A DNA stretch of 63,325 nucleotides, the filler included, from Hausera hauseri (taxonomy: Eukaryota): NCBI GenBank assembly GCA_046269625.1. It is 12 parts of 12 records of this genome, joined end to end, with 100 filler letters (N's around TTAATTAATTAA, not from the genome) between each part and the next. Parts side by side here need not be neighbours in the genome. Positions count along the whole stretch, not along the records: positions 27,529 to 32,155 come from JBJURY010497686.1; 11 more parts are not named here. The stretch is one strand, 5' to 3'. Every line of letters begins with the position of its first letter. The stretch's first letter is position 1. Positions 4,811 to 58,596 of this stretch are shown piece by piece. A program made the translations under genes and the position numbers. The notes below the pieces were generated by a model. The model made no database searches. It was not told the origin of the DNA and was given only the letters and a program-made list of their open reading frames with translations.

Positions 4811-4887
4811 GCTTCCTTAGGGCAAATAAAACCTATGGCGGTTATGTCGCACTTGCATTTTGGGTCGATATTATTCGAACTCCATTC

Positions 4888-5328
4888 GATCGATTTAAAT
4901 TCTTATTGCAAATTCGTATAGTGCACCGTGTTTCCTATCGATCCCTCCAGGTGCCGGGTGGTAATCATCAATGTTGGAATTATCGGAAATCCGATATTAA
5001 TGATTTTACCACAGTTGCACATGTGCACGTTCATTACACCGCAGACAGGTCGATGCTCTATCCACCTGCACTTGGTTCCGATAGATTCGAGAATTCTTAG
5101 GGCGTACAGCAACAAATATGTGAAGTGTAAAAGTGCCATGGCAACGGTGCCCAAGGGCACCTCTCCCTAGAGAATTTGCCGATGTGTAGTGCACCGTATG
5201 CACTACCGACTAGTACTTGTCCCGGATCGAAATTATCGAATTTTATTTTATACTGGAAAGGCCTGTGGCGGTTCGCCCTCAGTTGGCATTTTATCGAAAA
5301 CCAATCCATCGATTTAAGTTCTAATTGC
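4888..5328. repeat. ~418-bp palindrome-rich repeat, inverted relative to 2085-2561
   Basis: 5108-5328 aligns to the reverse complement of ~2350-2561, and 4888-5097 to the reverse complement of ~2160-2365. The unit restarts (atcgatttaa) at 4890 and 5308. Confidence 0.85.
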
Positions 5329-8400: not shown

Positions 8401-8970
8401 CGAATGTACGAGCTGCAGTATCGCGACTTGGCACGTTATTGGCAAATATTCGGCGGCGGCGGCGGCTGTGAAATCAGTATCGTTGGCGGTAACAAAGATG
8501 GCTTTTTCTTGGAGCTGAAAAACATCGATGGGACCAGCTGCTCCGTCAAATGATGGCAGATAGACTACTGGACATGTCCAGCTACCCGCTGGATCATCCT
8601 CTGTACAGCAGTGCGATAAAAAACAAAATCGGCTGCTTCAAGAACGAAAGAGAAGGCCGAGTCCAGTACAGGAAATGGATATTTTGACGCCCAAAGTGCT
8701 ACATTCTTCTAACGGAATGTGGGCCAAAAATGCGCGCAAAAGGCGGAACAGACGGAACCAAGTCACGGTAATTATCACCGTGTCTATGATGGACATGAAA
8801 ACGGAAAAGGCGGAGGAAAGGCTGTTGTATCTCAAACGACCATACGATTGATTGAGCACCAGGTGTATACAATCACAAATAGAAAGGTTGCTTTGTCATG
8901 CAACGATGACAAGCGAAATTGGGTGGGGCGGAATAAGAGTTTGGCGTACGGACATTGGCGGTTGAAGCAA
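5430..8970 (+). pseudogene. Polinton protein-primed DNA polymerase B (TP-vOTU-exo/HNH-pol), lineage A, many stops and frameshifts
   Basis: KGSSW (TP end); VVNVK..D.YCFIYSILA and HYVAVTNLDRLL (vOTU-like); VVYADIEA (ExoI); DHDHFT.QYLGAACN..NL (EndoVII/HNH); NFRGYD (ExoII); YIDINNLYG (motif A); DRPSYIGQVVLDLSK; DDKR...AYGH. Confidence 0.92.
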
Positions 8971-8997: not shown

Positions 8998-9482
8998 TCA
9001 GACCAAATTGCAATCAATCAGACAGTCAGTACAATTTATAAAAACTATGACACTTATTGTCATTTCATTTGATGAATAATGTACATTTAATATATAAATG
9101 TGTACAATTTCCATTACAGTACATTTACATTCTGGACATTGGTGGGTTACCTTGGTGGTGGTGTTGGAACACATTTGACAAACAACGACATGACCGCATA
9201 TTAAGAATGCCGTATCCACTTTTCTTTGTTTACATAGGACACACATAAACTTACAGTCTCGTACTTTGTCCATTATTTTCGCTTTCAGGTTCCTTAATTC
9301 ACCGCGTACCCGTTTAACAGCATTAAAGTAATTTGTATCGTACAATCGGTGAATGTTCATTTGATTTAACACAATAATTAAATTTTCTATAGAGGTACAA
9401 TCTGTTGTTGTTGTTGTTGTCATCAATGCTATTGACGCTAAATCTTCTTTAAATCCAAAATCACTTGCTGCTCTCGCAACCA
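8998..9482 (-). CDS. IAP-like UBA + C3HC4 RING protein (5' end lost at contig edge; stop probably read through)
   Basis: VARAASDFGFKEDLASIAL...TSIENLIIVL (UBA-like) followed by CVLC...F..CGHVVVC.MC...CPEC...IVHIY (IAP/MDM2-type RING). Confidence 0.75.
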
Positions 9483-13696: not shown

Positions 13697-14978
13697 GGTT
13701 CAAGGAGATGTACGACACTGTCAAGCGTTTGCCTCGGTACCTCGTTCCTGTTTATTTTGATGCTGTTCTGTCCTGCACGTATCGAGTCATCAAGGAAGAC
13801 AGCTGGTATCTATTGGGAGATCTTATCGTCTTTGGATCGAGTTTCGTCACAGCACTCGGTCTCAGTTCGATTATGCTCCGCTCGGTCGTGCGAAATTACT
13901 GATTGCCCCCATTGGCAACCAATTACGAATGAGAACGAGCCACGTTGCCTGCCGGATTTCCACAGTTCGCCGAGGGCATCTGGAGAAATTTGGGTCGCGA
14001 TACGGTTACTGCTCTGCGTGGTTTACTATTCTTTACTAATAGATTTGAGGACGCTCATCAGATTATTTTTACTTATGGAGCAACCGTTCGATACGGACTC
14101 CTTCCGAACTTGCTTGGTGCTGAATTTACATGAAGATATAACGCGCGTGACGCTACTTGGTTCTGGCTGTATTTGATCAAGGATTATGAATTATCACAAA
14201 AGGAAATAAATAGCGATAGAGTCAGCATACTAAAAATGCCAGTTGTAAGAATGTCTTATAATGAAAACTCGCATGGAAAACACATTGCTAAACAAACGGT
14301 AATCGACGTCATTCAGGAAATTCTGCCGAGGCTTATGATGCAATTGCCTTTTTGAAACGCAATACTGAAAAAAGTACCGATGAACATAAGAAATTGGAAG
14401 GTTTCACAGTAACAGCTGAAATACGCAATGCAACGAAGTTTGCATATGGTGAAAATGTCCACGATAGCGGAACATGGATAGATAGGATGGGTAGCAGTTA
14501 TAAAGCAGGAAACAAAGGAGTCCCATCTACTCCAAAAGATGGCAGTAACGTAGAAATTCTTGGATGGTGCGGCGCTGTTTTGGAATGGCTTGTTGGCATT
14601 CAAGCGACTGGAATTTATCCTCATACACGAATGCAATATCGTGGTCAGTTACTTACTTCGACTGACTGGTACATTAATATCAAAGAGTTTTTCGATGATA
14701 TGTTTTTTATTCCACTTAATGCAACGGATTCTCATTTCGCACATAATCGAGGTATATATCCAGACACCGTAAATTCCTGTACAGGATTTTCCGACAATCA
14801 ATTAAGAACTAATATTTTAATCGCGACGGCTGTTGCACCATCGCTCTTCAAAATTCAAAACACATGGCATATTTTGCGTTTTAGCAGAGAAAGAGCTTCT
14901 TGGTCCTATTGGAATTCGTACGCTTTGTCCTCGTTATTGGGCTTACAGAGGCTATTACGACAACAGCAATGATTCAAC
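13697..14978 (+). pseudogene. AGL: Glycogen debranching enzyme, amylo-alpha-1,6-glucosidase (GH133) domain fragment
   Basis: LPRYLVPVYFD, AG.P.F..G.WR..GRDT..ALRGLL, R.GLLPNLL, RYNARDATWFWL, TWIDRMGSS.KAGNKGVPSTPKDGS.VEI.G, DNQLR.N, LLGPIGIRTL.P. Internal stops and frameshifts; no introns. Confidence 0.9.
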
Positions 14979-15499
14979 TATTGGTAAAAGTACGTTCGCA
15001 AACACTGATGAAACAATGTCATCAAAAAGTAGTGATGATTCGAGAAAAAATTTCTCACATCTGAATTCCCTGCAAAACAAAAACGATGAACTAAATTTGT
15101 TGATTGCAAACCAGAATTCTGACATTCTGACAGCATACCAAGCGTACATGTACAGCGTCATGCTCTACAGTGACCACATCTTCTACATACAGAAGTACAC
15201 TCTGCTCAACAGGTCAACCGACTCGATATCAGACCTCATCTGCAGTTTATTGAAATCACAAACCGTTCTATTGACAAAAGAATACACTATAAATGCCAGA
15301 TTCAGTTGTGCTGCAACTCATCAGCTTTCAAATACATCAGCACCACTTATCGACTTGACGGAAGTCGATTTGCACAACATTTGCAGACACAGTAAGACTA
15401 TTATTGTATCGTTTCTTAAACCACAAAATAATTTCATCCTAATCCGTGATTTAATGCGATCGGAAGATTCGGATACCCACAACATCTTTTATCATAAAA

Positions 15500-18430
15500 A
15501 TCGTCGAGCGGCTGCCGGACCCGGTCACGGAGGTTCGGCAACCTAGAGGTTGCCACGCCGGCGAGGTGGTGCTGCGCGTCGGGCTATCGCGCCAGAGCCG
15601 TTCGAGCGCCGGGCGTTTTTGCGTTGCGCGCCACAATGTCCACCCGTCGCCCAGACCCTCTATCTTTCCTTCCATTTTTTACTCAATAACAAAAACATAC
15701 ATACACACATGCAAGAACACACCACACACAACACGCATCTATCACCACCTTGCTAACCTTCTAGGCACTTCTAACTTTTTCTTATCTCACAGTGGTCTCA
15801 TTATTCACAACTTTCATGATTTTCTCCTTTTCAGACAGACCTCCTTTCTTATCCAAATCAATTTCAAAATTTTTGGCGGCATGAACTCGCCACCTTCGAT
15901 CGACACCACTGAAAAGCCAAAATCTATTCCAATATTACGTTGCGCCGGTACAGTCACACCTCCCGGCCTCCCTTTCGGCCATCACTGTACTGAATTCTTT
16001 ATCGACAGTCAGAACTCAAGTCAAATCTACCTTCATTTTCATTGCCTTAGGCTCTAATCTGCAAACATCACCAAATCTCTTCCAAAGGCCCATAGTCTTT
16101 TCTACTATTTACCAAATTCAATCAAAACGCAAATACCCAATCTTCTACAACTCTTCGAACATCCTCATCCTTACAAGGCGCTATACAACGCTGTTCTTAG
16201 GCTTGCAGAGCCTTCTTTGGATTCTATTATTCAACGCTACTTCAATGAGAACACCCTAGGCAATCAAATGCCATCATAATTTTTACAAATAGCTGTAAAT
16301 AATTTGAAAGCATTTGGAGTAACACAGGAACACAATGCAGATCTTTTAAGACGTTATTTTCTCCACGCCTTACCCTTACAAATTAGGGGTCCGTTAACCG
16401 TGGTAAAAGAATCTTTAGACCTCAATAAATTAACTGATTTAGCTGATAAATCATATGAATTATTACAAATGCACATTACCACACTTATCTCTACAACCAT
16501 CACACTAAACGATACACTGCAAAACGCATTACAACAACAAATAACTCAATTAAAGGCAGACAACAAGACGCTTTTAGAAACCATTAACAGTATAAATAAT
16601 AAGTTAAACCAACTGACTCTCTGAAGACAAAATTTCCCTGGTGCTGCCCATTCTGATAGACCTCCACTGCGCAACAGACGATCACCATCACCCATACGAT
16701 AGTTTATTTGTTACTATCACCACAATTTTGAAAACAACGCACACAAATGTTGCATTGGGTGCAAATTCTTTGCACCTAAATTTAAGTCGGGCAACAGCAT
16801 CTGCATCTACCATTCTAAATTCAACACTAAAGCTATAAAATGTTTACCAGGATGCAATTTCAACTTACATGAGAATCGGCAATCTTCAACTAACAAACAA
16901 AATTAAACACAGCAAAAAAACTAATAACGCCGCCAGCGTCATTGGCTACCTCTAGCAAAGGCTCAACTTTACAAAATTACAGCCGAAACACAACATATGA
17001 AGTCTTTACGTTGGAGGCAACTGTTGTTAAACCAATAAAACATAACATCAACTTCCTCATAGACACTGGAGCAGCTGTCTCTCTGCTTCCTCCTGAATAT
17101 GAGGTACATAACAAAACAAACTTACACAAAAAATATTCACTGCATCAGGAGCAGCACTAAATACCTTCGGCACTACCAGCATCACTTTTACATTACAAGG
17201 CAGCAAAATCACATACAATTGGGCATTCACAGTTGCCATTGTTCAAACTCCTATTTTGGGATCAAACTTCCTATCGCATTACCAACTACTGGTGGATTGC
17301 AGACGATGTTGCTTGATTAACTCAAACCAATTTGAACAATCTAATCAGGTGGATATCATTTCGACGACCGAACGGACGATCATTGGTCGTAAACATGCCC
17401 TTAAAAAATCACATATTAATTTAAAGTATTATTAGTCATCCATTATTTAGAGATTACTATAATGCAGTTGACAAATATGATAATTCCAACTCTCTGACAT
17501 CTTTCGCTAACGAAACTGCTCGTAACACCATTTTTAATTCCACAATATTGCACCAAATTCCACTGACGCTAAGCAAATTGCAATATCAGCATCACCGTCA
17601 ACCATGTTATCATCACTTCCACTGGAGTTGCAATCCTATGTATTTTCTTCTTGCACTCGTTTGTTGCAAAAAGACAATACTTTCAAACCATCCACACACA
17701 CTTTTCATGATATTGTCACAGAACACGAGAGACCCATACGACAAAAAGTACAACCATTATGTCCACGTCGGAGGCACGCAGTCGAAGCCGAATTTTCAGA
17801 ACTGCAACGCTTAGACATCATCAGAAGATCTAAATCTTTATGGGCTTCGCCATTACATGTTGTCCCTAAAAAGGACGGATCTTTTCGCCAATGCGGTGAC
17901 TACAGGCAACTGAATCAGATCACAACCATGGACGCCTACCCTTTGCCGCTAATCAATGACATTCTACATAGAATTCACGGCTCTACAATTTTCTCAAACA
18001 TCGATCTCCATAAGGCATACCACCAAATTCCTGTAGCACCAGCAAACATTCCAAAAACGGCAGTAACAACTCCTTTCGGACTTTTTGAATATTTATATAT
18101 GCCACTTGGTTTACGCAGTGCAGCCCAAACCTTTCAGAGGCATATAGACACCGTTTTAGCAGACCCAGACTTTGCATATCCTTACATTGACGATATGTTA
18201 ATTGCCTCTTCATCTTCTAAACAACATACTGAGCACCTACGCATCGTTTTCAAACGACTCCACCAAAACAATCTCGAAATATACTTCGCAAAATGTTCCT
18301 TCTTTAAACAAAGAATCAATTTCTTTAAACACATTATTACTCCAACCGGACATGCTCCACAGCAAGACCGCATCACTCAACTGAAAAACATTCAGTTACC
18401 ACGCACAACTTCAGAAATGCGTTCCTTCCT
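15500..18430 (+). mobile_element. Ty3/Gypsy element: 5' region, gag, aspartic protease and RT (decayed)
   Basis: Gag LGNQMPS..L...LLRRYFL..LP...L..LADK and CYYHHNF...AHKC...C; protease FLIDTGAAVSLLP; RT WASPLHVVPKKDGS, CGDYRQLN, PFGLFEY..MP.GLR.AAQTFQR, YIDD. Confidence 0.92.
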
Positions 18431-23621: not shown

Positions 23622-26600
23622 AACACCGATACTGAACCCGACCTTCATTTTCATCCTTGAAGCAGCCGATTTTGTTGGTAATCGCGCTGCTGTACAACGG
23701 ATGATCCGGTGGTTGTTGGGCATATCCAGTAATCCATCTGATTACATTTGCTGCAGTAACTGTTCGCGATTGACTTTTCTCAGCCGCAGGAAAAAACTGT
23801 CTGTCACTGGCAATTATATTAATGTCACAGCCGTCAAACATTTGCCGGTAACGTGCCAAGTCGTGATGCTGTAGCTCATACATCCGCAACTTACTCAGGT
23901 CCAATACCACTTGCCCGATGTAACTTGGTCGGTCCAGAACGACTTAATCTCTGTTTAAAAGCACCACAACCAATCCACCGGCAATGTGCATTGACCGCCG
24001 AAACTGTGCCTTGCTGGTATACGTAACTAGCCGCTTTTTCTGTTGCATAGGCGTAAATTGAGCCGCTTTTCAGATTCTCCACTGTTTTTCCGTACAGGGT
24101 ATTGTTTTGCAGCTTGTAATAGTCCTTTTCGAACTTTGTAAAAGGTGCGGCTGGTTTTTCCGAATTTCCATCCATGTACGCCTTGAATATGGGAGCCTGA
24201 GCAAATCGGATTGCACGATGCAATTGTGTGATGCGTACACGGAGCTGCATGCAGAACTGTAGCATACGCGAATGGACCACGTAATTCAGCTTCGGTTCAT
24301 GCGTCATGAGCAGTTTCTTCACTTTTGAGCCTGGCAAATATTGGTTAAATGGTACGACCGGTAAATCATCCAAAACGTTATGCAGCTCATCCGGTACCAC
24401 GCGATCGACCTCCATCACGTATCCGAGTGAGTCTGCCATGTCTGCTCGTGGTATGTTGACCATTATGTCGTCCAGATCTTGTCTGTCGACAACCCATTCG
24501 AATGATCCGTACGGCAAAGGTTGCAAAAGCGCCCTGTCATACAGGTTATTAATATCCATATACAGCAGTGATGTGGTATCGGTAGCACGGACCTGATGCT
24601 TGTTCACAAATTTCATGCCGCCGTAATACCAACATCAAACAACTGGTACATTTTCAGGTCTTGCAGCAGCTCAATGTATCGATCAAGTGACATTAGAGCT
24701 GACGCCAAACTCATCCCCGGTATGGAATAAAAGTTGAGTGGCCCCAACCTATCTTCAGCCAACACTTTCGCTCGAAACGCTTGAAGCACATTGGCTAATA
24801 AGTACACGTCAAGTTTAAGATACTGGAACATGTAATCCAACATATTTCTACAGCCGAGTTCTTTCCAACACCTCTGCCCGTTCCGGTATTCATTGGCTGC
24901 GATACCAGTCCATCACGGCTATATTCCTCTGCTGTCCGGAGTCGCTAATATGATGTAGCAAAGTCATGTGGAAATGTCTTTGCTGCGTGCAATATGTGCA
25001 GGGAACTGCGTCAGTGTTATCGGCACATCTGTCAAGGCATTTACCAGCTTTGCCAATGATTCATTGAGAAATTGCAATGAATCGAGGAAGCGTACCTGGA
25101 ACCGGTTTATGCATGCTGACAGGGACAGGTACTTCTCCATTGTTGGGATTATGGATAGTTCTCAGTGTGGAAATCCTTTGATGGCCCATTTCAGTATATG
25201 GTGACAATCATAACCTCGGAAATTATGACAGATCACCGGTAGGAATGGCCGCACACGCCCTGTTAAATTGCATGCGTTGCATGCTGCTCCCAGGTATCGA
25301 CCGGTTAAATGATCATGGTCCGGTACGAGCCGTTCCTGTGCATCAAAAGGCAATATTTTGTGGCAGAGCTAACATTCATCGGCGGCAGCGAAAAGCAGCG
25401 GTTCATATTTGTCTGTCCATATCAAGGGCTTAGTGTTATTGTTACTGTACCATGGTGCGATTTCCCTTTCCACTGTCGCTTCCAACAGTTGCAAGAAATC
25501 GCGTATGCATTTCCAGCCATGAAAAACGTAATATTGTGGTTGTCCAGGGGATTTTATTGGAACAACGAACATACCGATGGCGATTGGAATGTGCTTTTGG
25601 TCGTATGCGTTGTGCCCCGGTAGGATTGCCTTGATATCGGCATATACCACATGCCGGACTGTCTGTTTTCGATCAGTCACTGAATCTCAGCTCCTTTTTG
25701 ACTGGCATGACATACATTGTTGTCCCTGATGAATTTTCTCTGCACAGCGCCACATGTTTTTCCCATGTCGTTTTTGACCTGAAACCATGCAGACATGTAG
25801 GGCACCATTTACAGTTTATACGCTTTTTGATGAATTGGTTGTGTTTTATGTTTAGCAGTCCATTCGGGTTCCGACTGCGATAAATTATATCCACATGTGG
25901 GTTTTTGTATATCTCTTTGTCTGATGGTATTTCTACGATTGCGTTGTACCGGAAAACGTTGATTGCCAGAGTAGAATTACGCCGTTCAAATGTCGGGATG
26001 GATTTCAGTTTCATTGGCATCCAGCTTTCATCGAATTCCAATTCGGAAAAATACTGCCGATACTGCTTTGGACGATTTGCATGATTTCTAACCACTTCGT
26101 CGTATTTAAATATAGCCAGAATACTGTAAATAAAACAGTATTCGTCGTCGGTATTTTGTACATTCACTACCGACAGAGACTGCTTCAGAGCTGCAGATGT
26201 CGGTATGAATGATCGCCCAGACAAATAAATTATATCACTTGACTTTGTTATGATAAAGCCGAGAGTGTCAATTTTTATAAATCGCTAGCCACTACCCTTT
26301 TCGGTGTAGTTGGCGATTTTTTCATCCAACTTTTCGCCTACATCGTCGATAAAATCTTCCGAATGTGGTACAGCTCGATGTGATAGGTACCATTGTTTCC
26401 TGTCACCTTAAACATTTTCAAATTCTGCAAGTGCGTAATATTGCACTTTGCAGTGTTTTTGTTGGAATTTCTCTAGTTCCAATTCTACCCGGTTGCACAC
26501 TGGACGGAACATGCCTCAGCTGTAGTGTTGTTGTCCCCGACATGTTTACTTTCATGTCCATGTACGATTTGTTTAGATCGTACTTGACAGTAATGGAAGG

Positions 26601-27315
26601 TTCCTGCTGTTGCTGCTGCTGCTCGGTACTCTTTCGGATGTATTCGTCAAGACTTGTTGAGGTCTGACGCTTCCTGCTTGTTGAGGGGATACTGGTTTTT
26701 CTTGTCGCCACGACTATTTCCTTTTTGGATCGCTAAAACTGGTTCAAGTTGTCCTTGTGCTGGTTATAAAATTGTTCATAGTTGATTTCATCAACTATAA
26801 AACAACCGGGACAAACGTAGTACCGTTTACCGTGCACCGTTGTGGCGCCATAGTACTGCAGCATTACATCATGGCAACCATCAACGTCATGCATTCTATT
26901 ACTACAGTATCGCGGGTACGTGGGGCAATGCACAACCATCATCTTCTTCGACTGCGTAAACGGCCCAAGATGATGCTTGTGCATCGCATAAAAGTCGGGT
27001 ATGGACAGCGGGTTGGAACATCACACGTTGGACATACATACGTGTCCGGACCAATTTTGTAATATTTCGCCATCTCTTGATGGCACTGATCCACCTCATA
27101 TATGCGATAGACGCAACACATGGGATATTTCTTGCATTTCTGAATGAGAAACAAATTAAAGTAGATGTTAAATATCATAAAAAATATATAAACTCATTTA
27201 TAATTTAAATTAAAATTCACTTAAATCGCACCTTATACCGCTCTTTCTATGGTGGCGGTGGTGGTAGTGGTTGTAGTCTCAGAGCTTAACTTACTGAGCT
27301 ATAAACATATACCAT
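23622..27315 (-). pseudogene. Polinton pPolB lineage A including two N-terminal Cys/His units and a putative first intron (27312-27140); 3' end truncated
   Basis: Collinear with 5430-8970 and 42467-46510: VVNVQNTDDEYCFIYSILA, DHDHLTGRYLGAACNACNL, HNFRGYD, DINNLY, K..NNTLYGKTVEN. Confidence 0.9.
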
Positions 27316-28099: not shown

Positions 28100-29075
28100 T
28101 TACCTTGTTTGGGTTTCAATTGTACACCTGTCGATGTTAAATGTCGACAACAGACTGTCCACTGTACGTGTCAGAGTGGAGACCGCGGCTTTCTCTTTAA
28201 ACTGGCAAATAGTTTGGGCTTGATGCTCCATCACTTTCTGGAAATGAGCCACCTGTTGACTCAACTGCTTATTTTCTGTCTCTTATCTTCATTTGCTACC
28301 TCCACACCTCATTTTCCTGTGCCAGTTGCCTTTTCTCATCTGTACTTCTTTCGGCCAGATCTCGAACCGTTTATCGAAGTTCGTATGCAGTCTCGGATTA
28401 TTAACCGGCTCTAACTGCACAGTTTGCAGTGTTTCTGTTGGCCCAAGTTTCAGTCTAAGGCGATTTATCCGACGCCGTTTGCACTGATCCCTCCACTTTC
28501 CAACCAGCTGATTCTTCACGACAAAACGCTCTGCGTGTTATTACATTCCTGCTACCTCTGTGCCAACTGAGCCTGTCGATGTTTGGTCATTTTAATTTGA
28601 CCGCTAGGTGGCTCAATTAGCGTTTTGATTGACCGTTTCTTGCCTATGATTATATCTTTTTATCGGCAGATTTTTTCTTCTCTGGGAAGAATTCGTCATC
28701 TGAGTCTGTCAGTGCGATATCCATCCGTAACTGATTGATGGACACTGGAGCTGCATTCTGTTGTACGCTGGTGTTGGGCACTAGTGTTTTCTGCTGCTGG
28801 ACACTGCTGTTGGTTGTACTTATACTTATTTGATCCAAATCGACTGTACACGTTATCTGTTGCGCATTTGACTGTTTCCACCGATCACTTTCGTCCGGTC
28901 TCTGAGCTTCTGTTAACTTTGCACCTTCATCAATAAGTTGTGTAAGACCTCCACTGTTTATTGTCGCACAAAATAAAGATAAAATGATGACAAACGCTGC
29001 CTTATATACTTTGTCGTACTCCTTCTTTTCTAAGGACATTATAGTGTGCGCACATGGTTTTAAATATGACATCAA
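28100..29075 (-). pseudogene. Unknown disrupted ORF divergent from the pPolB at 30357
   Basis: ORFs 28650-29075 and 28289-28519 read as pieces of one protein-like sequence. No recognisable family. Confidence 0.3.
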
Positions 29076-29239
29076 AAAATAAAATTACATGATTTTTCGG
29101 ATACACATTCACACACATGATTTCTTTACGATACACATTCGCACATATGGACAGTTATAATATATTACGTTGCGGGTTATTTACTAGGTTACTAGGCAAC
29201 AGAGCGAAAAAATAGACATTTTACTTTTCGGTATGTTAA

Positions 29240-30005
29240 ATTAATCAACAAAATTTCATGTTCCGGCAACAGTAATTACATTTACTTAAATTAATATAAC
29301 TAAACTGTTGATATAGTTTTATTTCATAAGTCTTAATAAAACTATATACGACAAAATTACATAACACACGACTAATTTTTAATGGTTAAATTTTGCCTAA
29401 CAAAATTATAACTCATGATTAAAATTTTATTTTTAACAAAACTATAACACATACGAATATAATGTAGTTGTAAAATTATATTAGTCTAACAAAACTATAT
29501 AACACACGATTACAATTTTATAATTCTTTAACAAAACTATATTACATTCACATACACAGGAATATAATTTTGTCTTTAAAATATATATTTAACAAAACTG
29601 TAACACAAAAATATATTTTTGTCACATTTTATAAGCCTTAATAAAAGTATATAACAATTATAATTTTGTCACATATAACTCGTAATAAATCTATATATAA
29701 CACACATTGTCTTTGAAAACTATATAACAAATATATTTTTGTCACATTATATATATCTTTAGAAAACTATATAACACGTATGACTATAATATCTTTGAAA
29801 AATTTTATAATTATTTAACAAAACTACACAACACACATTAATATCATATTGTCATTGTAAAATCTTGTAACAAACAATTGTAATTTTGTCGTTATATTAT
29901 TCCTTATTAAACCTTTATAACACACGATTACAATTTTACAAGTCCTCTATAAAACCAAATAACACAAACTAATAAAAATTTATTGAAAACTATACATTTT
30001 ATACA
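29240..30005. repeat. AT-rich degenerate minisatellite (~35-60-nt units)
   Basis: More than ten recurrences of taacaaaacta(ta)taacacacga...aatttt(gtc). Confidence 0.8.
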
Positions 30006-30277: not shown

Positions 30278-30310
30278 TCCAATTTGATTGGCTGAAATTT
30301 ACTATAAATA
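30278..30310 (+). promoter_or_regulatory. Candidate CCAAT + TATA promoter of the pPolB gene
   Basis: ccaat-ttg-attgg followed by ctataaata, about 50 nt upstream of ATG 30357. Confidence 0.35.
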
Positions 30311-30356: not shown

Positions 30357-32155
30357 ATGGTATATTTTGTTATTTCTTCTTTTATTTCTTATTCTAGAAT
30401 TGTGAATACAATTATTGTACCAGCCAAATTCATTCGCCGAACAAATGCGATGATACCATGTCCAAGTACTATGGCATTCAATTGCACGGATCAGTTTTCA
30501 TCTGCCCGTAATGCGAAGTTTTTACTGGGATACGATTCCCAGAATTCAAACATCGTCATCAGCAACACGTTTTTTATTTCAGTAAGTCAAAAAAATCAAT
30601 TGTCAAAGAACATACGGATATGATTAATATGGCCAAACAATTCGTTGTAGATCAGCAAGTACGACCAATATCTATCCAACAACAACCAGTCAAACGGACA
30701 GTGAAGCATAATCACAGTGGAAATAAGAAACGTAAACTTGACAAACATGAAAACGCGTGTACGAAAAATTAGACTGTACAATTTGTTGTTGGTAATAATT
30801 ATGTAAAGCTTTGTTTTGATGTGGCGCCTGACCAAATGACTTCTACTTGACCGTCTGATGAAATACTAACTACCTTACATCTGTACACTTCTCCATTTCC
30901 ATCTTGTAAAGTTCCGTATGGTTTTGAGAATGCTGAAGGAGATACAAAGGAGACTTATATTTCACATAGAGCTGTCCCTTATGAGCAGTCTTATCCAGAT
31001 TAGGTAGCTAATATTTTACAGGATAAAATTGAGAATTTTGTTGAAATGGGTAGTGAGTGGAAAGTGGTTAAGACATTGAAATACCGTTTTCATATAGTCA
31101 AAACTAGCCCACTACCATACTTGGCTGGTAAGTCCTACATTGTAACACCTGAGGCTTTAAAAAATGCTATGGCCGATATAAACGTACAAAACGAGGACAC
31201 ATTGTGTTTCTTATACTCTATTCTGGCAGTGACCAAGTATTCTCTCTTTGATTATCATCATCATAGGAAGAGTTAGCAATTACATTTATTATTTAAACGA
31301 GCTGAAATATTCATTGGATGACATGCCAATGAAAATATGCAATATAGGCAAATTTGAGAGGCAGAATCCACAGTTGTCAATTAATGTCTTTTTGTTTCAT
31401 GAGAAGGATGATGTGGATTTTGATGAGGACCGTGAAAAATCCATTCGTTGATATTTTGTATTGCACCAAAAATATGAATGGTACTATAATAAACTTGCTG
31501 ATTGTTGACAATGATGATCACTTTCACTATGTTGCTGTTCCCAACCTCAAGTTACTGTTAAATATGGATAGTAATAAACTTAGAATTAAATGTAAACATT
31601 GGTATGAGAAATGTCTGCATGGCTTTAGCCTTGACACTGCTTACGCTAAGCATTTACCAATGTGCAATTCGTCAGCCAAATGCATGACATTGTACAAAAT
31701 GCTTGAAAATAAGTTTTGCGAGTTTAAGGGCTAGGCAAATCAATAAGTCCTCCTTTCGTCGTTTATGTCGACTTTGAATCTGTTTTGTGTCATAATGATA
31801 AATTAAAGCATATTCATTTGCCTGCCGCAGCCGGGCTCTTGTTAGTTTCACCAACAGGTATTGAATATAGACAATTTATACGTGAAAATTCCATAGTCGA
31901 GTTTCTGGCCTCCTTAGATGAAATTTCTAAAACAATAGTTTTCCTATGGTACGAAAGTGCCAAAAAGCAAATGATCCGGTTAACTACCTCTGAATGGTTT
32001 CGCTTAAAAAACGCCGCAGCATGTTACTTTTACCATGAATAGGGCACTACATTTGTTTGAGATCACTGCCATGTTACAGGTAAATACTTAGGCCCAGCAT
32101 GTAATAAGTGTAACTTGTCTCTTAAGATTAGAGTTAATTTATTTTTTATATTTCA
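30357..32155 (+). pseudogene. Polinton pPolB lineage B, 5' half: ATG exon, 38-nt intron, one Cys/His unit, TP, vOTU, ExoI, HNH
   Basis: FENAEGDTKETYISHRAVPY...MGSEW; INVQNEDTLCFLYSILA; HFHYVAV; VVYVDFES; DHCHVTGKYLGPACNKCNL. Confidence 0.88.
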
Positions 32156-37534: not shown

Positions 37535-39716
37535 AAAATTGTTTCTCGGTAAACCAATCAATTTTGAAAACCAAGTGCGCAAGTTCGTACAAAAAGTGAA
37601 AGGTTTTTATTTGATTCATCGTTATACATAATGATGTCCGATAACAATCGTCTAGATGGCGAATTCAATCCATCGATAAAGATGGAAAAGGTACTCGAGT
37701 TGATGATGTCGGAGAGAAACTCCAACATCTGTTTGCTTAAGCGTCGGCTACGTGATTTACAACGTATTGTCGACATGAAACAGGTTGATTGTCACTTGTG
37801 TGTGTGTGCGGATAGTTTTAGTTTTGACTTAGGCTCGAGGGTTGTCGGTGAATGAGGAGGAACGTGATTGTCTGAAAGAATTCGGACACCTTCTGATAGA
37901 GGACGATCCGTTCTCCGTTACCGTTGAGAATAGGTTTCAAAGGTAGTCTCGTGTACTGTATGACAGGATAACGGTTGGTTGTTGCAGCATAATGGATAAG
38001 GTGACGAAAGATCCTGATGTTTCCCGAAAGAACGAATTAGTCCAAGAATATTCCCAATACCTTCGGGAACATCCACCGGATTTCCAATCATTGCATTTGT
38101 CGGATGTTATCAACCGGTGCCAAAACGAACCCGATGAGTGTCAAACTATTGGTCCCATGACTCGTAAACGACGTCTTCTTCAGAACGGTATAGAGTCGGC
38201 ATTGTTGGGAAAATATGCTAAGTTGTCCATTGAGAAAGCGAGTGAATCAAGTGACAGTCGATCAGAATCGTCCGAAGATGGTGGCGGATCCAATGAACAG
38301 GACAATAGTGATGAGTCAGTATCCAGTGACACTGACTCACTGTCGAGTTCTAAACGACGGATGAAGGTCAATCGACATGATCGGCGGGAATTCCTTTGTC
38401 CACAAGAGGACTTTCTAGATTTCTTTTGTCTACTGCAGTACTTATTCATCAGTACACACCAACATCGATTGACGACAACTCAAGTCGAGGAACGAATTCG
38501 TCATTGGCAAATTATCAACAGACGAAATGTCGGTGATTTATTCAATCGATGGGCATCACTAACAGATGATTGGGTCATTTTGACAGTGTCAGCACTGAAT
38601 TATCTCAATACCAACAGTCCCGTTGTTGTCGACCATCGGAAGAAATCTCAGATCTGGCATTGGAAACGAGATCGGGAAATTTACGATCTCCATCGGATGT
38701 TTCTCGATTGGTGGAATTCTCCAGTCGACAAGAACCAATCGGCAAACTGTCAGACAAACAATCAGAATGAGAAAATCCCCATGCCTCTTTATCCCACAGA
38801 CTGGCAGGTACGGATGTCCACAGCGGATGAACGGATGCGATTTCAAATTCAAGAACGGAAGAGATATTTGCGACCGTGGCGTGGATTCGTGTACAACGTA
38901 CATGGGTACAGTTGTGTAGTGGCACCAGTAAGGGGTTGTCAACCGGGTAGAGATTACAGCAATGTGAAGGCACGAGGACATCCATTATTGGTCAACGAAC
39001 GACCGCCGCATGTTAACATTGTGGAAATTGTCCGTGATGCAGTTGCCCGATTACCCAACGGTCAAGGATCAAGATCGGATATTGTTCTGTTGGCTATGGA
39101 CAGTGCATATTGGAATAGTCAGGGAAATGAGAAAACGATCGGCCAGTGTATTAGTTCGGCATTGGATCGACTACAGGGTGAAAGTAGCGATCCATCGGTC
39201 AGATACAATTCCAAATTGAAATTGTGGTTCTATCGTCATCGACATCGGACATTACAGGAACTGGAAGAAATCCATTTGAAGAATTTGCAAGAGGAAATCA
39301 AGAAATATCGCAGTAATAACAACAGCAACCCGAACAACGGCAATACATCATCATTACTCAACGGAATGATGCGGCCAACAACAAGTCAATCAACTCAGAA
39401 CACAACCAGCGGACCGTATTACAATCCTGTTGTCATATCAGACAATCGACAGCCGTACGTATCGACGGATATAATTCCCCAACAGTCACCATTATTCGTC
39501 AACAGTGCTCATACTCAACGTCAGTCCTATCAGCAGTTCTCTCAGGCAATCACAAATGCCCGTGAACTGATTCAGCCAGTGCCTGTTGCTCGACCACAGA
39601 CTTTTCATCCTGGTCATCCATTACAACATGCCAACAATCCTGTTTTACTTTACAATCGAACTGTCCGTGTTAATTTGCCTTCGGATTACTTTAGTGATTC
39701 GCATTACTATATTTGA
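37535..39716 (+). CDS. NFRKB: Nuclear factor related to kappa-B-binding protein (INO80 subunit G). Exons 37535-37602, 37656-37783, 37833-37942, 37988-39716; 5' exons not located
   Basis: DEUBAD-like LFLGKPINFEN...KDGEFNP; FQIQERKRY..P...F.Y..HGY..VV.PV.G; KARGH.LL...RPPHV.I...VRDAVARLPNG.GSR; SALDRL..E..DP.V.Y....KLW.Y.HR.R. Three frame-preserving GT-AG introns of 53, 49 and 45 nt. Confidence 0.92.
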
Positions 39717-42466: not shown

Positions 42467-45400
42467 TTGGTGATATGTTTATACCTACGTAAAAGAAATA
42501 AGTTAGTGTATATCAATTTATTATATAATTATATTTAATGTTTTCAATTTAAAGTTAACATTTACTTTAATTTGTTTAAGTTTAGAATTGTTCACAATAT
42601 CCCATTTACTGCGTCTGTCGCATACACGAGGAGGCAAAACAGTGCCATCAACAGATGGAGAAATATTACAACGTCCGACGTGTAATATTTCAGCCAATGT
42701 CCATACCCCGATTTTTATGAGATGCACAAACATAATCTCGGACCGTTTACACGGTCGAAGAAGATGATGTTAGTGCATTGCCCCATGTACCCACGGTACT
42801 GTACAAGTACATTGCACGACGTTGGTGTTTGCCAGAATGCAATGGAGCAGTACTATGGCGCCACAACGGTGCACGGTAAACGGGTCTATATTTGTCCCGG
42901 TTGTTCAATAGTTGACGATGAAATCAACTATGAACAATTTTACAATGAAACCAGTTTCAGCGGTGGTGCTCGAAAAAGCAAATATTAATGGAATCAACTA
43001 AAATCAGCAGCATCCCTTCAACAACAACAACCAGTAGGAAACGTAAGGCATCAACAAGTCTGGACAAATACATCAGAACTTATATTGAGCTGCACGAAGA
43101 AGAGCAACAGCAGGATCAGCAGGAGCAGAAACAGCAGCAGCAAGAAGAACAGATACAACAGGAACCCGATATTACAGTCAAGTACGATCTGAACAGATCG
43201 TACGTGGATATAAAAGCGAACATGTCGTCGACAACAGCAACACAATTGATATATGGTTCCGCAAAATGTGCGCAACCGGTTGGAATCATAAGTGGAGAAA
43301 ATCAAACAACATCACCAACACTGCAAAGTGCAATATTATACACTTGCAGAATTTGAGAACGTTGAAGGTGACAAGAAATAATTGTACCTGTCACATTTAG
43401 CTGTACCACATGCCAATGATTTTATTGCCGACGTCGTCGAAAAGCTCGAGGAGAAAATCGCCGACTACACGGAAAAGAGTAATGGTTGGCGAATTATATG
43501 AATTGTCACTCTCGGCTTTATCATAACGAAGTCGAGTGACGTAATATATTTGTCTGGACGATTATTCATACCGACACTTGCAGCTCTGAAGCAGTCTCTG
43601 GTGGTAATGAATGTAAAAATACTAACGATGAATACTGTTTTCTTTACAGTATTCTGGCGATATTGAAATATGACGAAGTGGACAGACATAATGCATCTCG
43701 TCCAAAACAGTATCAGAAATATTTTTCCGAATTGGATTTTGATGAAAGCTGGATGTCGATGAAACTGAAATCCATTCCGGTTTTTGAACAGCTTAATCCG
43801 ACACTGGCAATCAACATGTTCCGGTACAACACAATCGTAGAAATACAGGTGGATGAAGAAATTTCCAAAAATCCTCATGTGGATATAATCCATCGTAGTC
43901 GGAACCCAAATGACCGCTCATTAAATTTGTTACTACAAAAAGAAAAGTACCATTACGTTTCAGTGACAAATCTGGACAGATTACTGAACATGGAGCATGG
44001 CCATTTCCTCCAAAAACTGATAGTGTAAATGGTATCCTGTATGTCTTCATGGATTCAGGTCGGAAACAAGATGGGAGAAACATGTGGCGCTGTTCAGACA
44101 AAATTCGTCTGGAACCACAATGTATGTCATGCCCGTCAAACAGGAACTCAGATTCACTAATTGGTCAAAATGCCGATATCGAAGCTATCTTACCACGGCA
44201 CAACATATATGACCAAAAACATGTTCCAATCGCCGTCGGTATGTTGGTTGTTCCAATAAAAACCGCGGGTCAACCTCAATTTTATGTTTTCCATGGATGG
44301 AATTGTGTACGCGATTTCTTGCAGCAGTTGCAAACCATAGTGAAACTGAAAAAGCACCCTGGTACAGTAGAAACAGCAATAAACACTTGATGAAGATGAA
44401 GATGCACGCCCGACGTTTACAGTCACAGATGAGTGTTACCTGTGCTACAAAATATTACCGTTTGACTCACTGGAACGTCTCGTACCGTATAACGATCACT
44501 GTACTGGTCGATATCTCGGAGCGGCATGTAATTAATGCAATTTGGCAAGGCGTGTGCGGCCATTCCTACCGGTGATCTTTCATAATTTCCGAGGTTATGA
44601 TTGTCACCATATACAGAAATGGACCATCAACGGATTTCCGCACTGGGAACTGTCCATAATCCCAACAATAAAGGAGAAGTACCTGTCCCTGTCAGCACGC
44701 ATAAACCGGTTCCAGGTAAGCTTCATTGATTCATTGCAATTTCTCAATGAATCACTGACAAAGCTGGTAAATGCCTTATCTGATGTGCCAATAACCTCAA
44801 CGCAGTTCCCCACACATATTGCACACAGCAAAGGCATATTTCCATATGTGTTTGCAACATTATATGAGCCATTCCGGACAGAAGAAGAATTACCGCCGCG
44901 ATGGACAGGCATCACAGAAGATGAATATCGGAAAGCACAAGAATCTTGGACAGAACTCGGCTGTAGAAATATTGGAGTACATGCTCCAGTATCTCAACTG
45001 CACGTGTACTTATTGGCCGATGTGTTCCACGAATTTCGGGGGAAAGCGTTGGCTGAAGATAGGCTGGAGCCACTCAACTTTTATTTCATATTGGGAATGA
45101 GTTGGGCGTCAGCTCTATTGTCAATGGATAGAGATATTGAGCTGCTGCAAGACCCGGAAATGTACCTGCTGTTTGATCTTGGTATTCGCAGTGGCATGAC
45201 TTTTGTCAACAAGTATCAGGTCAGCGTCGCCGCCGCCGATACTACATCACGGCTGTATATTGATATTAATAACCTGTACGATTAAGCGCTTTTGCAACCC
45301 TTACCGTACGGTTCTTTCGAATGGGTAGTCGACATAGAAGATCTGGACGACATAATAGTCAGCATATAACGAGAAGATATGGCAGGCTCAGTCGAATACC

Positions 45401-46510
45401 TGATGGAGGTCGACCTCGTGGTACCAAATGAGCTGCATGACGTTTTGGGAGATTTACCGGTGGCACCATTTATCCAATGTCCTCCAGGCTCAAAAGGGAA
45501 GAAACTGCTCATTACGCAAAAATCGATGCTGATTTACGTGGTCTATTGGCACATGCTAACAGTTCTACATGCAGTTGGGCGTATGCCTCACACAGCTGCA
45601 TCATGTAATCCAATTCGGTCAGGCTCCCATATTTAAGGCGTGCATCAATGGTAATTCGGAGAAACGAGCCGCAGCTTGTACAAAGTTCACAAAGGACTAA
45701 TACAAGTTGAAAAATAATTCTCTCTACGGGAAAACAGTACAGAACCGCAAAAAGCTACTCAGTGTGCCCCTACGTAATAACGAAAAGCGGCTGATTACGT
45801 ATACCAGCAAGGCTCAGATCAGGATGTCAACGCACATTACCGATGGATTAATTGCAGTGCTGTTAAACCGGGAAGAAGTCATTCTGGACCGGCCAAGCTA
45901 TATCAGACAAGTGGTATTGGACCTGAGCAAGTTGCGAGTGTACGTGCTCCAGTATCGCGACATGGCACGTTACCGGCAAATGTTCGACGGCTGCAAGATC
46001 AGTATCGTTACAAGTGACACAGACAGTCTTTTTCTTGAGCTGAAAAACATCAATCAAGGCCAGCTGCTTTGGAAAATGATGGTAGATGGACTACTGGACA
46101 CGTCCAACTATCCGCAGAACCATCGTCTATATAGCAGCACGATAACAAATAAAATCGTCTGCTTCAAGGACGACAGTGAAGGCCGGGTTCAATACAGAGA
46201 ATGGATATTTCTACGCACAAAGTGCTATAGTCTTCTGACGGACCGTGGACCGAAAATTCGGGCAAAAGGAGTCCAGCTGAAACAGACGGAATTAAATCAC
46301 GCTGATCATCGACGTGTCTATGTTGGACAAGAGGAAGAAGAAAGAGGAGAAGGAGGAAAGGCTGTTGTACCTCAAACGACCATACGATCAATTGAGCACC
46401 AATTGTAAACTATTACAAATAAAAAGGTTGCTTTGTCATGCAACGATGACCAGCCAAAGTGGGTGGGGTTAAATAAGAGTTGGGCGTACGGACATTGACG
46501 TTTGAAGTAA
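42467..46510 (+). pseudogene. Polinton pPolB lineage A, near full length, with two N-terminal Cys/His units
   Basis: Same domains as 5430-8970. KNNSLYGKTV (motif B), IVTSDTDSLF (motif C), LDTSNYP..H.LYS...NKI..FKD, LRTKCYS, RAKGV; stop at 46508-46510. Confidence 0.93.
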
Positions 46511-47433: not shown

Positions 47434-47850
47434 TTATTCATAATAAATGTGTACAATTTCGATTATGGCACATTTACATTCTGGACATTGGTGGGTTACT
47501 TTGGTGGTGGTTTTGGAACACATTTGAGAAGCAACGAGATGGCCACACATTAAGAATACCGTATCCACTTTTCTTTGTTTGCATAGTACACACATAAGCT
47601 GACAGTTTTGTACTTTGCCCATTATTTTCTCTTTCAAGTTCTTTAATTCACCGCGCACCTTTTCAACAGTATTAAGGTAATTTGTATCGTACAATCGGTG
47701 AATATACATTTGATTTAATACAATAATTAGAATTTTTATATTGCTTAAATCTGCTGTGGTCAATGCAATTGACGCTAAATCTTCTTTAAATCCAAACTCA
47801 CCTGCTGCTCTTGCAACCGTCTCGCTATCAACTAAGCAATACGGCGTACA
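47434..47850 (-). CDS. IAP-like UBA + RING protein (in-frame ATG absent; probably spliced from an upstream exon)
   Basis: ETVARAAGEFGFKEDLASIAL...NIKILIIVL followed by CVLC...CGHLVA..MC...CPEC. Homologue of 8998-9482. Confidence 0.75.
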   Translation of the reverse strand, partial: CTPYCLVDSETVARAAGEFGFKEDLASIALTTADLSNIKILIIVLNQMYIHRLYDTNYLNTVEKVRGELKNLKEKIMGKVQNCQLMCVLCKQRKVDTVFLMCGHLVASQMCSKTTTKVTHQCPECKCAIIEIVHIYYE

Positions 47851-51000: not shown

Positions 51001-53398
51001 TCTTTATGATTTTGGGATTCCATACAATCCGATATTTTATTTAGTAAGATTTATCTGGCTTTGACCCTCCTTCTCCGACTATATGTCCAAGATAGGATAC
51101 AGCATTTTGTGCCCATTTGCATTTCTTTGGGTTCAGTTCTAATCCTGCCTGTTCCAACCGCATAAGAGTGTCTTCGATGTCCTTTAGGTGTTCCTCTTCT
51201 GTTCTTGATGCTATCATTAATCGTCTAAGTATGCGAACGCGTGATCGAGTCCCATTAACATTTTATTCATCATTCTGGTGAAGATAGCTGAGCCGGTTGT
51301 TATACGGAACGGCATGACGTTAAATTCGTAAACTCCGTCGTGTGTCTTAAATGCCGTTTTATAAGTCATCTTCAATTTCTACTTGCCAATATCCTGATTG
51401 CACATCCAACGTGGGAAACCACTTTGCTCCTGATAATCGGTCTAAAGCTTCTTTTACTGGCGGTAGTGGAAATGAGTCTTTCATCATAAGTGTGTTCGGG
51501 GCTCTGTAATCTATACAGAATAGATGTTTTGTGGTACCCTTTTTCTTGACCATGAGTATTGGCGAGTACCAAGACCAGTAGCTTGGTCGTATTATGTCAG
51601 CCTTCAGCATACGTTTTACTTCTTTTGTTATTTCAGGCCTTAATGAATGCGGTGGTGGGTACCATTTAGGCATCTTTTGGTCCTCCAAATCGATTTCGTC
51701 ATTGGAACCAGGTTTCTTTTTTAACGGAATAGTTAATCTTAAGGTTTTTGCTCTACCTATATCTTCCTCGTTTTGGGCGATAATCGACTTATATTTGCAT
51801 AATAATTCGTAAAATTGATAATATGCTTCTGGTGAAAATTTTGTCTCAAAATGAAGTGGAAACTCGGCATATTTATAAGGTTTTTCTTCTATTGTTATTG
51901 CCGATACTTTGTAAGTATAACCCAATGTAGTGTTGGCATACAGCTTTACGGGAGTTGGCGCGTTATTAACCAATCTGACTGGTACTCTTCCTGTCGTTAT
52001 TCTTGTCAAAATGTTACTGAGTATGACATTTGGGTTAACGTCTTCTTGTGGCTCGAAGTATACTGGTTGATCATCCTCCTCGCGTATTTGAGCATAAATT
52101 AGCATTTCGGTTCTGGGCGGAATATTCTCGTCGCCGGGAATCCATACTTCGCCTAGTTTCCTCTTTCATTGTCTTAATACCTTTCACTTGTCCAAGTTCT
52201 AGTAGTTTCCCCGTATGTAAATTTATTGCGATATTGGGTAATTGTTTCAGTATGTCGCAACCTAACACTACATCATCGCTTAGTTGGTCCACTGCGGCAA
52301 ACTCGTGTCGAAGGATTTGGCCCATTAATTGGACTAAGGGACTCCATTTAAATTTCTGTTTGGATTCTTGCCCGAAGGCTTCTATACTGCCTGGGTCTGA
52401 CGACGAGGCTGGGTGCAATTGTTTTTGTAGCATTGGTGGTATTGATTCCAGTTTAATAGACGATTTCTCTGATCCGGTGTCGATTAAGGTGTAGACTTCC
52501 CAATCCTCGATGGTAACTTTTGTGAAGGGTCTCCATTCCATAACTGTTCCATAACAACTTGACACGTCCTTTGGTCGTTTAACTGAAGAAATTTTATGTC
52601 CGTTTATCCTTATTTCTGGTGATGAAATGATATTTTCAGCCAGATGTTTCGGCTCTTCATTCGGATATAAATCGTTGATTGCGATGCTATCTACATAGTT
52701 TCTAATTAGTGATTCTTGTACTATTGGTTTTGGGAGCGATTTCATTCCTTGTGTTCCCCAGACTGTTGATCTTGTCTCTATATTACTAGCTATTCTCGGT
52801 GAGTACAATATCCTATGATCATCTTCCGCTCGTCGTTGATTAGTGATCTGCATTTTCTTTAATACTCCGTATTGTTTTGTTCCTTCGTAAGGGTCCTCAT
52901 AGCTAAAAGGTTTCCGACGGTATTCCGATTTGTATGACACCATAGATGTTCTATCGCAATCTTCATATATTGGAGCTATTGGTGGAATGATGGGCAAGGG
53001 TGCCTTAATTACTGAATACATCTTGTGTCTGTTTTGTCTGAGGTTCGCTTCTCCTCCGTAAGGCTCGTCATCATCGGAATTATCTCTTCGTGTTATTGGT
53101 TTCTTAGTTTTGCGTTTGGATAGAAATGTGGGTCTTGCTCGTCGTTTATAATTATGATAGCCGACATGTCGTTCAACGTCATTTTTCCATCGATTTTCCT
53201 CGTACGCTTTGAGCATTTTGCCGAACGGGGTGATAATTGCGATTAAGTTCTTGCAGGAAAATCCTGTTAGCATAAATATTTCATACCCATTTATGATCGA
53301 TTGGATTACCGTCTTTACCAGTTGTACCAAGAAATAGATCGCTAAAAATCCAGATACGGCTTTTCCAAAAATTAAAAATCTTCCCCATATTTTGTAGA
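48076..53398 (-). mobile_element. Ty3/Gypsy element: glycoprotein-like TM segment - PR - RT - RNase H - IN - extra signal-peptide ORF
   Basis: LIDTGS (PR); WYSPILMVKKK, FCIDYR.PN, LDVQSGYWQ (RT); IAYEGRSL..AEKNYS.TE.E.LA (RNase H); H...GH, IDIIGPLP, TDRG.NY, TTAYHPQCNG.VE (IN). Confidence 0.92.
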
Positions 53399-53498
53399 NN
53401 NNNNNNNNNNNNNNNNNNNNNNNNNNNNNNNNNNNNNNNNNNTTAATTAATTAANNNNNNNNNNNNNNNNNNNNNNNNNNNNNNNNNNNNNNNNNNNN

Positions 53499-56741: not shown

Positions 56742-58596
56742 CTAATTGAACATGTTAAATAATGAAAAAAGAAAATCGATCAAGAAGGCTAACAAAAAAT
56801 GTAACACCGTAAAAAACATGTCGGACCGATTCGAGTAAAAAAATCAGTTCTTTTTGAATATTCAAAAAAAAGGTCGGGTGAATGAGACTATCATGCACTA
56901 ACCCCCACGACTCCGTTATTTTGATGTGGTACGTAGTTTTGAAAAATTGTGAGAATGTAATAGTAGGTGATTATGCGTTGTCGAGAACAGGGTCAGCATG
57001 TAAGTGCGCATGTGTGTTGGATTATAATAAATATCTAAAGCAAAATTGTAATAGTTATCCAAATTATCTTGATAACCGAGAACAAAATTTAACAGCTATT
57101 TGACAATATAATTGAAAATAAAATGGACGAGAAAATCAATTGTATTTTTTTTTAAATTTTTTAATTGCAGTATTAAAACAAAATAACACAATCAATGTCA
57201 TTGGGGTCATTGGAATCACCCATATCTCTTTGCGTTTTTGTCGAATTGTTTGTCTAACGATATTTCTGGTTTGAACTGTTTGTTTATTAGCCAACGATTT
57301 TTCCAGTTCTTCCAGCGTCATTGACAAATATTCAGAGATTTTATCATTAAATTCCATAATAATACTATTACTACTACTGTAGTTGACAGATAGTAATGCA
57401 GTAGAGTTGGCGATTGAGAAATAAAATAATAATAAAACGCAGAACAAGTCACACACTGATATAAATGAAATCTACATCATCATCACACACAAAACGACAA
57501 AAATACACAAAACAACGTAGCAGACAACACCAATAGGTTACAACACAGCAAAAATGTAAATTGAAATAACAATGATTTGGCCACTGAGTGTTAGAATTAG
57601 CACACAACGGAAAGTAGTAACACCACGAACGACGACAACGATGTCGTTAAATTTACAATAACAATAACGACCGAGGAAAATAAAGAAAAGAAACAGGAGA
57701 CAATTCAATAGGATACATCTATTATTATTACGAAATCTTTCAATATTCACGACATCTTTTACCAAATTGAACAACGATTGGTTTCTCAAATAGTAAAACC
57801 CGTTTGTCATTTCCAATGCCATATTTTCATTGAACATTGCAGTAGCTATTTTGTCAAAGCATGTCATGAGTGATATGGTAAATTTCACAAGAATGTTATC
57901 GAAATTATTATCTTGGGTTGCATTCAAATTTGTTTTCGTTTGATAATCTTTATACTTTTTTCGGAAACTGGTAACTGAACCTGCATAATATCGACACCTG
58001 TTCTGATACCAAGACCAGCAGTCAGAACTGTTTAATTACCTTGATGTGAAAGGTTAAAATTGAGTGATCGAGCACTCTTTGGAAGACTTGCAGTATTTAG
58101 AAAAGGTCCGCCTTTCTCTGTTGGTTCCAATCGTACTTCATTGTTATGAACGTTAAGTATGTCAGAAATGACTGCGAATTAAAAGTCGACCAACCAAAGA
58201 AGCCTTTGCATTACGTTGATGTGCATACGACAATATCCGATATCTTTCTTTGTTTTGGATACAACCAGTTGCCTTTAACCATTCAGGTTTACTCTATATC
58301 CAATTTGCTGTATTAAATACATAAGGAAGGAATATTCTTGAAATTGGATTTTGTTTTATTNNNNNNNNNNNNNNNNNNNNNNNNNNNNNNNNNNNNNNNN
58401 NNNNTTAATTAATTAANNNNNNNNNNNNNNNNNNNNNNNNNNNNNNNNNNNNNNNNNNNNCATAAACCCTTAATTATTCCATATTACTTGAGGAAGAACA
58501 CAACACGATTTTTTAAAATAACTGTATTAACATAAAAATCACAACACTTGTGTAACACTGCTATCTTCAGTGACGGTATCATTATCACTGTGTTCA

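Follow-up and report, generated by a model that had tools for sequence, protein, structure and literature searches.

A likely start codon intron in Alpha-type protein-primed polymerase genes of virus-like elements in Hausera hauseri

Start codon introns and the closest described systems

In eukaryotic genes, a peak of introns directly behind the start codon is well documented (Nielsen and Wernersson 2006, PMC1626468). In the available text of that work these are phase-0 GT-AG introns between codons 1 and 2, which leave an ATG-only first coding exon, and they are found in host genes, with an enrichment in ribosomal-protein genes and in short conserved proteins. The arrangement predicted here is the same, but the gene encodes a 1,200-residue polymerase and belongs to a virus-like mobile element, and one related clade is without the intron.

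Polintons/Mavericks are generally regarded as virus-like gene sets free of introns, and intact vertebrate Mavericks have been reported to be intronless (PMC8097293, accessible portion); like the sequences studied here, these are virus-like elements with a protein-primed family B polymerase (pPolB), surviving mostly as decayed genomic fossils. Splicing upstream of the main ORF is described for the mRNAs of adenovirus E2B, likewise a protein-primed polymerase system, in the accessible part of PMC11304566. Introners in dinoflagellate maverick-polinton-like proviruses (10.1101/2025.03.18.643946, available sections) are also intron-forming insertions inside Polinton-like elements, but they are recent, repeated intron-generating transposons, mostly acquired after integration, whereas the present introns keep one position, at the ATG, in families that have diverged, and their interiors are unrelated.

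The Alpha class of adintoviruses is treated in 10.1101/697771 and a TP-vOTU layout is known for Polinton pPolB from 10.1101/2024.03.18.585575, each in the sections available. Alpha-type adintovirus/Polinton polymerases carry, as do the genes analysed here, a PF03175 polymerase with TP and vOTU in one chain, from which the present genes differ by a tandem Cys/His repeat at the N-terminus, unmatched in Pfam, and by a predicted spliced start. A start codon intron in a Polinton or adintovirus polymerase was not found in the literature searched, outside which lay Kapitonov and Jurka 2006, Repbase and the maps in bioRxiv supplements, any of which could hold one. Splicing is absent from the accessible main text of 10.1101/697771 and 10.1101/2024.03.18.585575, and pPolB splicing from the accessible parts of 10.1101/2023.08.22.554363, 10.1101/2024.03.25.586562, PMC8363768, PMC12220804, PMC6431247, PMC7070027, PMC9499273 and 10.64898/2026.07.28.741253.

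Four junctions ahead of a Cys/His repeat

The window, i.e. the whole stretch of 63,325 nucleotides analysed, is made up of 12 contigs of 4-9.5 kb with N-linkers between them. Decayed pPolB sequence with stops and frameshifts occurs on five contigs, and the four copies in which a first-pass annotation had proposed an intron behind the start codon (A, B, C and D) lie each on a separate contig. On re-reading, the coordinates, lengths and letters of all four junctions were exactly as first described.

On the forward strand, copy A begins with an ATG at 30357-30359 (context AAAATG), followed by a phase-0 GT..AG intron of 38 nt at 30360-30397 (GC 0.18) and by the first unit of a zinc-finger-like Cys/His repeat at 30398-30601, which contains one in-frame stop. 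The decayed Alpha-type pPolB sequence of this copy, interrupted by stops and frameshifts, extends from 30398 to the contig end at 32155 and has P0019 as its nearest relative. A CCAAT box at 30279 and a TATA-like box at 30303, the latter 54 nt before the ATG, form a predicted Pol II promoter (30279-30309). Upstream of it, AT-rich short repeats (families of 41-56 nt) occupy 29300-29960, adjoined by an ORF of no known identity at 28650-29084 on the reverse strand.

Copy B, on the reverse strand, has its ATG at 3004-3002, a phase-0 GT..AG intron of 43 nt with donor GTGAGC at 3001-2959, and a Cys/His repeat fragment at 2596-2958. The designation of all four copies as pPolB genes is appropriate for A, C and D but goes too far for B, whose contig carries only this N-terminal repeat, broken near 2565 by an unrelated dispersed repeat (2081-2562, with further copies at 4867-5325 and, partly, 63160-63277), and no polymerase core. 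A 118-nt match seemed to tie B to the contig-12 polymerase, but the shared 118 nt are a dispersed repeat and the link was rejected; a homologue search with the first 92 residues of B yielded none among 5 candidates.

Copies C (reverse strand) and D (forward strand) have longer introns. In C, the ATG at 27315-27313 is followed by a phase-0 intron of 173 nt (27312-27140) with one in-frame Met within it and a branch-like TTAAC 32 nt upstream of the acceptor, and then by decayed pPolB sequence (23629-27139) with 77% identity to the intact relative P0001 across the TP/vOTU/exonuclease region. In D, a TTG occupies the start-codon position (42467-42469), ahead of an intron of 116 nt of the same family as that of C (42470-42585) and of decayed sequence matching Pfam DNA_pol_B_2 (42586-46507). 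The two copies are 75% identical in amino acids and also alignable in DNA, and thus constitute one family, to which a third decayed copy on contig 2 belongs (5494-8967, forward strand, with its 5' end beyond the contig). RING-finger genes lie tail-to-tail with D (47434-47850, reverse strand) and with the contig-2 copy (8998-9480, reverse strand); the frame beside D lacks a Met close to its 5' end, is preceded by a T-rich tract and may be spliced too. Copy A is 40% identical to C, and A and C/D are not sisters. The junction keeps the same register in three families, which makes three independent cases and not four, since C and D count as one.

As had been claimed, the acceptor lies exactly one codon ahead of the first Cys in all four copies. 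The introns show GT..AG ends with a pyrimidine-rich 3' end, the acceptor TAG is an in-frame stop in three of the four (A, B and D), and none of the lengths is a multiple of three (2, 1, 2 and 2 modulo three for A to D). The shorter introns had been likened in size to those of the NFRKB gene of the host, also present in the stretch (37603-37655, 37784-37832 and 37943-37987, forward strand), which measure 53, 49 and 45 nt; the 45-nt one corresponds to a 15-residue gap against the homolog P0170, while the 53- and 49-nt ones are read from the reading frame alone. It counts against the start intron that the 38 nt of A are shorter than all three as well as than the introns of 42-56 nt of relatives, and that the intron of C contains an in-frame Met. 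Two of the predicted NFRKB introns (37603-37832) start with GTT (GTTTTTA and GTTGATT), as against GTA or GTG donors in the element.

Phase 0 directly after the ATG is clear for A and B, where the proposed ATG-only exon is unambiguous, but C has a second candidate donor at 27294 and D has TTG in place of the ATG. If the intron of C/D were real but used this downstream donor, the first exon would comprise 7 codons. Such a reading, which we consider rather unlikely, draws on the stronger-looking sequence of the second donor of C (GTAAGT), its phase 0 at an offset of 21 from the ATG, a GTAAAA at the matching place of D (42489), and the 7-9 residues tolerated before the first Cys in relatives (L006, P0034). 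It would also agree with the 70% identity of C and D over the first 27 intron bases. The last 36 bases of the two introns are 80% identical, the middle 55% and exon 2 80%, a trend towards better-kept ends that favours a real intron, in a comparison of the only two full copies aligned with 40 of 269 differences listed. Against the downstream donor, the second site of D is shifted out of frame by a single base, neither A nor B offers another donor within usable reach, and the proximal donor is the canonical GTAA in other copies. In run X1, which behaves as DNA and gave 5562 contigs on the region of copy C, position +4 of the intron was A in 347 of 361 depth units (8 contigs). Contig depth in this run was 136-812 in the intron interior, where low values arise partly from a C-specific insertion, 4843 at the intron 3' end and 2929-30794 in the region of the ATG and before it; no joint matching the C intron was among the 15 of 41 joints listed, in contigs that show presence and not absence. 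The proximal donor is thus preferred for C/D, with the ATG-only exon firmest in A and B.

A probable spliced start in a family of Alpha-type polymerases

The relatives retrieved comprised the intact proteins P0001-P0003, at least 150 representative proteins and 91 DNA loci; of three scans of viral contigs, one gave 11 distant loci and the other two no match. The relatives carry PF03175, most of them together with an endonuclease VII-like zinc motif. PF03175 (DNA_pol_B_2) was found in copies C and D, in the contig-2 copy and in the intact relatives, whereas A was assigned by its similarity to P0019 and P0001. The first 400 residues of the intron-free relative L001 were modelled in three folded parts with a mean pLDDT of 84. 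Residues 143-252 resemble a Y-family little finger, i.e. a terminal-protein-like domain (Z 8.4, rmsd 2.5, 92 aligned); for residues 265-396 the matches are numerous OTU domains (Z up to 6.8, a middling value; rmsd 3.3, 94 aligned). As modelled, this order is the TP-vOTU layout of Polinton pPolB of the Alpha class. The best viral fold match was a Drosophila-associated adintovirus 2 protein (E 8e-19), and Foldseek against PDB gave no match at E<=0.001.

Residues 1-62 of L001 form the Cys/His repeat, in which Cys38, His56 and His59 are invariant across 18 rows. Its zinc-finger-like structural matches are weak (Z 2.0-2.7; Serrate/ARS2, TUT), and neither Pfam nor Atlas gave a match to it, nor PDB a clear fold match, an absence that is no sign of novelty. 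A distant pPolB copy at 58461-63325 (reverse strand) is 38-49% identical to P0188, whose lineage has this Cys/His repeat attached to another polymerase core; an exchange of the repeat module between polymerase cores is suggested. Pfam scans of 42 window ORFs revealed no integrase, packaging ATPase, protease or capsid, nor were TIRs seen, on pPolB contigs of only 4-6 kb. Elsewhere in the window, a Gypsy-like retroelement frame (52071-53450, reverse strand), in which a match to a mononegavirus-type fusion glycoprotein precedes an aspartyl protease, recalls in its layout the env-in-frame planarian Burro elements (PMC6431247, available part), and fragments of an amylo-alpha-1,6-glucosidase (GDE_C) gene lie beside retroelement remains at 14292-15546.

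The case for the start intron comes from comparison with these relatives. A profile of the Cys/His repeat, seeded on 13 units of relatives and on none of the window copies, matched 28 of 173 sequences. When read from the acceptor, each of copies A-D lacks exactly the first profile column, the Met, so that the match of A (iE 7e-16) starts one column in. In all six metagenome relatives with a visible start (L001, L002, L003, L006, L008 and L009), an ATG is joined directly to the repeat, 1-7 codons before the first Cys; L001 in particular reads AAAATG AAT TGT behind a TATA box and equals copy A minus its intron. Removal of the intron therefore yields the N-terminus of the family, in agreement with both the profile and the intron-free relatives. 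TATA-like motifs precede the ATG by 30-88 nt in six of six intron-free relatives; upstream of B, C and D the TATA pattern gave no match.

Introns are also predicted elsewhere in the family. Loci L004 (291-333) and L007 (931-972) have in common an intron of 43 and 42 nt, respectively, within the conserved motif LSG|SSY, so the pPolB genes of this clade very likely splice, as judged from sequence. Further AT-rich introns of 42-56 nt occur in the 5' part of the gene in relatives. The linker that connects the Cys/His repeat with the TP domain contains several AT-rich candidate introns of 44-62 nt in L005 (80-469), L006 (481-530), L007 (445-489) and L008 (824-979), leaving mini-exons, at positions that differ by locus. 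In L009, a 45-nt GC..AG candidate (271-315) ends 4 nt before the polymerase ATG, i.e. in the 5' UTR. Five short proteins (P0031, P0035, P0045, P0063 and P0069) end in T/A-rich read-through at similar places of the vOTU region and may mark more introns. An in-frame ATG|GT..YAG was also present in L006, L028, L069 and L072, four of the 84 loci surveyed out of 91, but was not taken as real, none of them lying before a Cys/His repeat.

Taken together, the profile gap at the Met, the stop at the TAG, the intron-free starts and the LSG|SSY intron make it probable that the start intron of these pPolB copies is real. The contrary reading would be that no splicing takes place, that translation starts at a Met inside the first repeat (codon 21 past the acceptor in A) and that ATG|GT..AG arose by chance. 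Six protein clusters are indeed called from this Met, with P0002 and P0188 full-length, and 25 ATG|GT..YAG candidates exist across the window. Nevertheless, the residues ahead of that Met keep the Cys/His pattern of the family in all four copies and are modelled within the domain (pLDDT 62-78), and the intron-free relatives begin just ahead of the first Cys. A YAG with ATG|GT 30-180 nt upstream was found at a fraction of 0.0038 of 120,002 window positions, a low per-site chance; in only three of the 25 candidates, namely A, B and C, does the sequence continue with x-Cys, and the chance of the pattern in three families, with five registers allowed, was about 3e-7, a post-hoc figure. We therefore regard an unspliced internal start as very improbable.

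The same Met-x-Cys could be produced if the acceptor were also, or mainly, used in trans. Flatworm-type spliced leaders ending in AUG are known, and the phase-0 acceptor, the intron 3' end as the best-conserved part, and the matches of NFRKB (best 49%; named ones mostly from flatworms) would accord with such a leader. The ATG|GT upstream in cis in three families and the TATA box of A argue against it, and it would hold only for a flatworm host. Judging from NFRKB, the host is probably an invertebrate with small introns and may be a flatworm. An Rfam scan of the window gave no match and no SL RNA family. Trans-splicing is thus improbable, and removal in cis is retained.

A leader of adenoviral type was the parallel drawn in the first-pass annotation. 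The first exon of E2B in adenoviruses has three codons. Under this model a tiny exon would be joined to alternative acceptors to serve several replication proteins, much as pTP and Pol mRNAs have common 5' exons and differ in their last junction (PMC11304566, available part). The parallel proves weak because the terminal protein is fused in this polymerase: instead of a distant common leader spliced to separate pTP and Pol ORFs at alternative acceptors, there is one short, local intron of just 38-173 nt, with no second acceptor or product seen, and L001 carries a TP-like domain, an OTU domain and the polymerase on a single chain. We judge such a leader to be the least credible of the alternatives; as far as the available text of PMC1626468 goes, the start codon intron of eukaryotic genes in general comes closer to the present case than the adenovirus leader does.

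Proposed intron history and dependence on host splicing

Two trees were built, the first on 37 of 42 rows (four distant rows and one low-cover row being left out) and the second on all 45 of 45 rows; two earlier trees gave the same main groups. Six intron-free loci and six of seven proteins with a full Met form a single clade, with support of 100 in the first tree and 94 in the second. Outside it are A, C, D and all six clusters of proteins called from an internal Met (P0002, P0019, P0020, P0038, P0048 and P0076), as well as two exceptions, P0065 with a full Met and P0001 with an ambiguous start. Full-length P0188, from the P0048 cluster and 30% identical to P0001, also starts at an internal Met. 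An intron behind these protein calls is a prediction, and the calls might mark genuine starts or result from contig ends. Support for the backbone that separates A from C/D is weak (57-85).

Since the intron-free starts fall almost wholly in one clade, a single loss is more parsimonious, although P0065, P0001 and the weak backbone leave room for independent gains. Under the latter, the introns would be real but acquired separately at the ATG in the families of this host, with ATG|G as a proto-splice site. The distance between A and C/D, which are not sisters and only 40% identical, the differing lengths and interiors of the introns and the several other intron positions in relatives fit such gains, and the start codon has been discussed as a proto-splice site, recurrent in unrelated genes (PMC1626468, available portion). 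The same register in three families and the internal-Met calls in relatives outside the intron-free clade speak for inheritance instead, and independent acquisition appears possible but doubtful. On the reading by inheritance, the intron would be old in the repeat-bearing lineage and would have been lost once in the L001-L011 clade, after which other short introns would have been gained. More broadly, and tentatively, these genes may represent an invertebrate radiation of Alpha-type pPolB, with lineages only about 30% identical, in which an ancestral start codon intron sits on a swappable zinc-finger-like N-terminal module and one clade lost it and then acquired new short introns repeatedly.

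In the proposed mechanism, host Pol II would transcribe the gene from the TATA promoter, a box seen as sequence in A only, and the ATG-GT..AG stretch, likely an ordinary spliceosomal start codon intron, would be removed by the host through constitutive splicing, presumably of U2 type. The spliced mRNA would read Met-x-Cys, with the whole first repeat kept, followed by TP, vOTU and polymerase, whereas unspliced RNA would lose the frame or at best give a protein missing part of the first repeat. The intron would likely serve expression, through intron-mediated enhancement or mRNA export, and not product choice. The window copies themselves are fossils and probably encode no functional enzyme. 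That expression depends on splicing and that ORF finders miss the start, as first proposed, gains comparative support from the intron-free starts and the six internal-Met clusters, tempered by the ambiguous exon 1 of C/D; the sequence comparisons indicate that the polymerase would likely need the host splicing machinery and that automated gene calling probably overlooks where it really starts.

Among eukaryotic genes such an architecture is nothing unusual. An intron conserved at the start of the polymerase would nonetheless show nuclear expression dependent on the host spliceosome in an invertebrate lineage, would explain why database proteins of the family begin mid-domain, and would provide a compact system in which to study how introns are lost and gained by a mobile, virus-like genome. 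If the broader radiation outlined above is true, host splicing would act as a gate on the replication of these elements, and the annotation of their polymerases would be systematically wrong.
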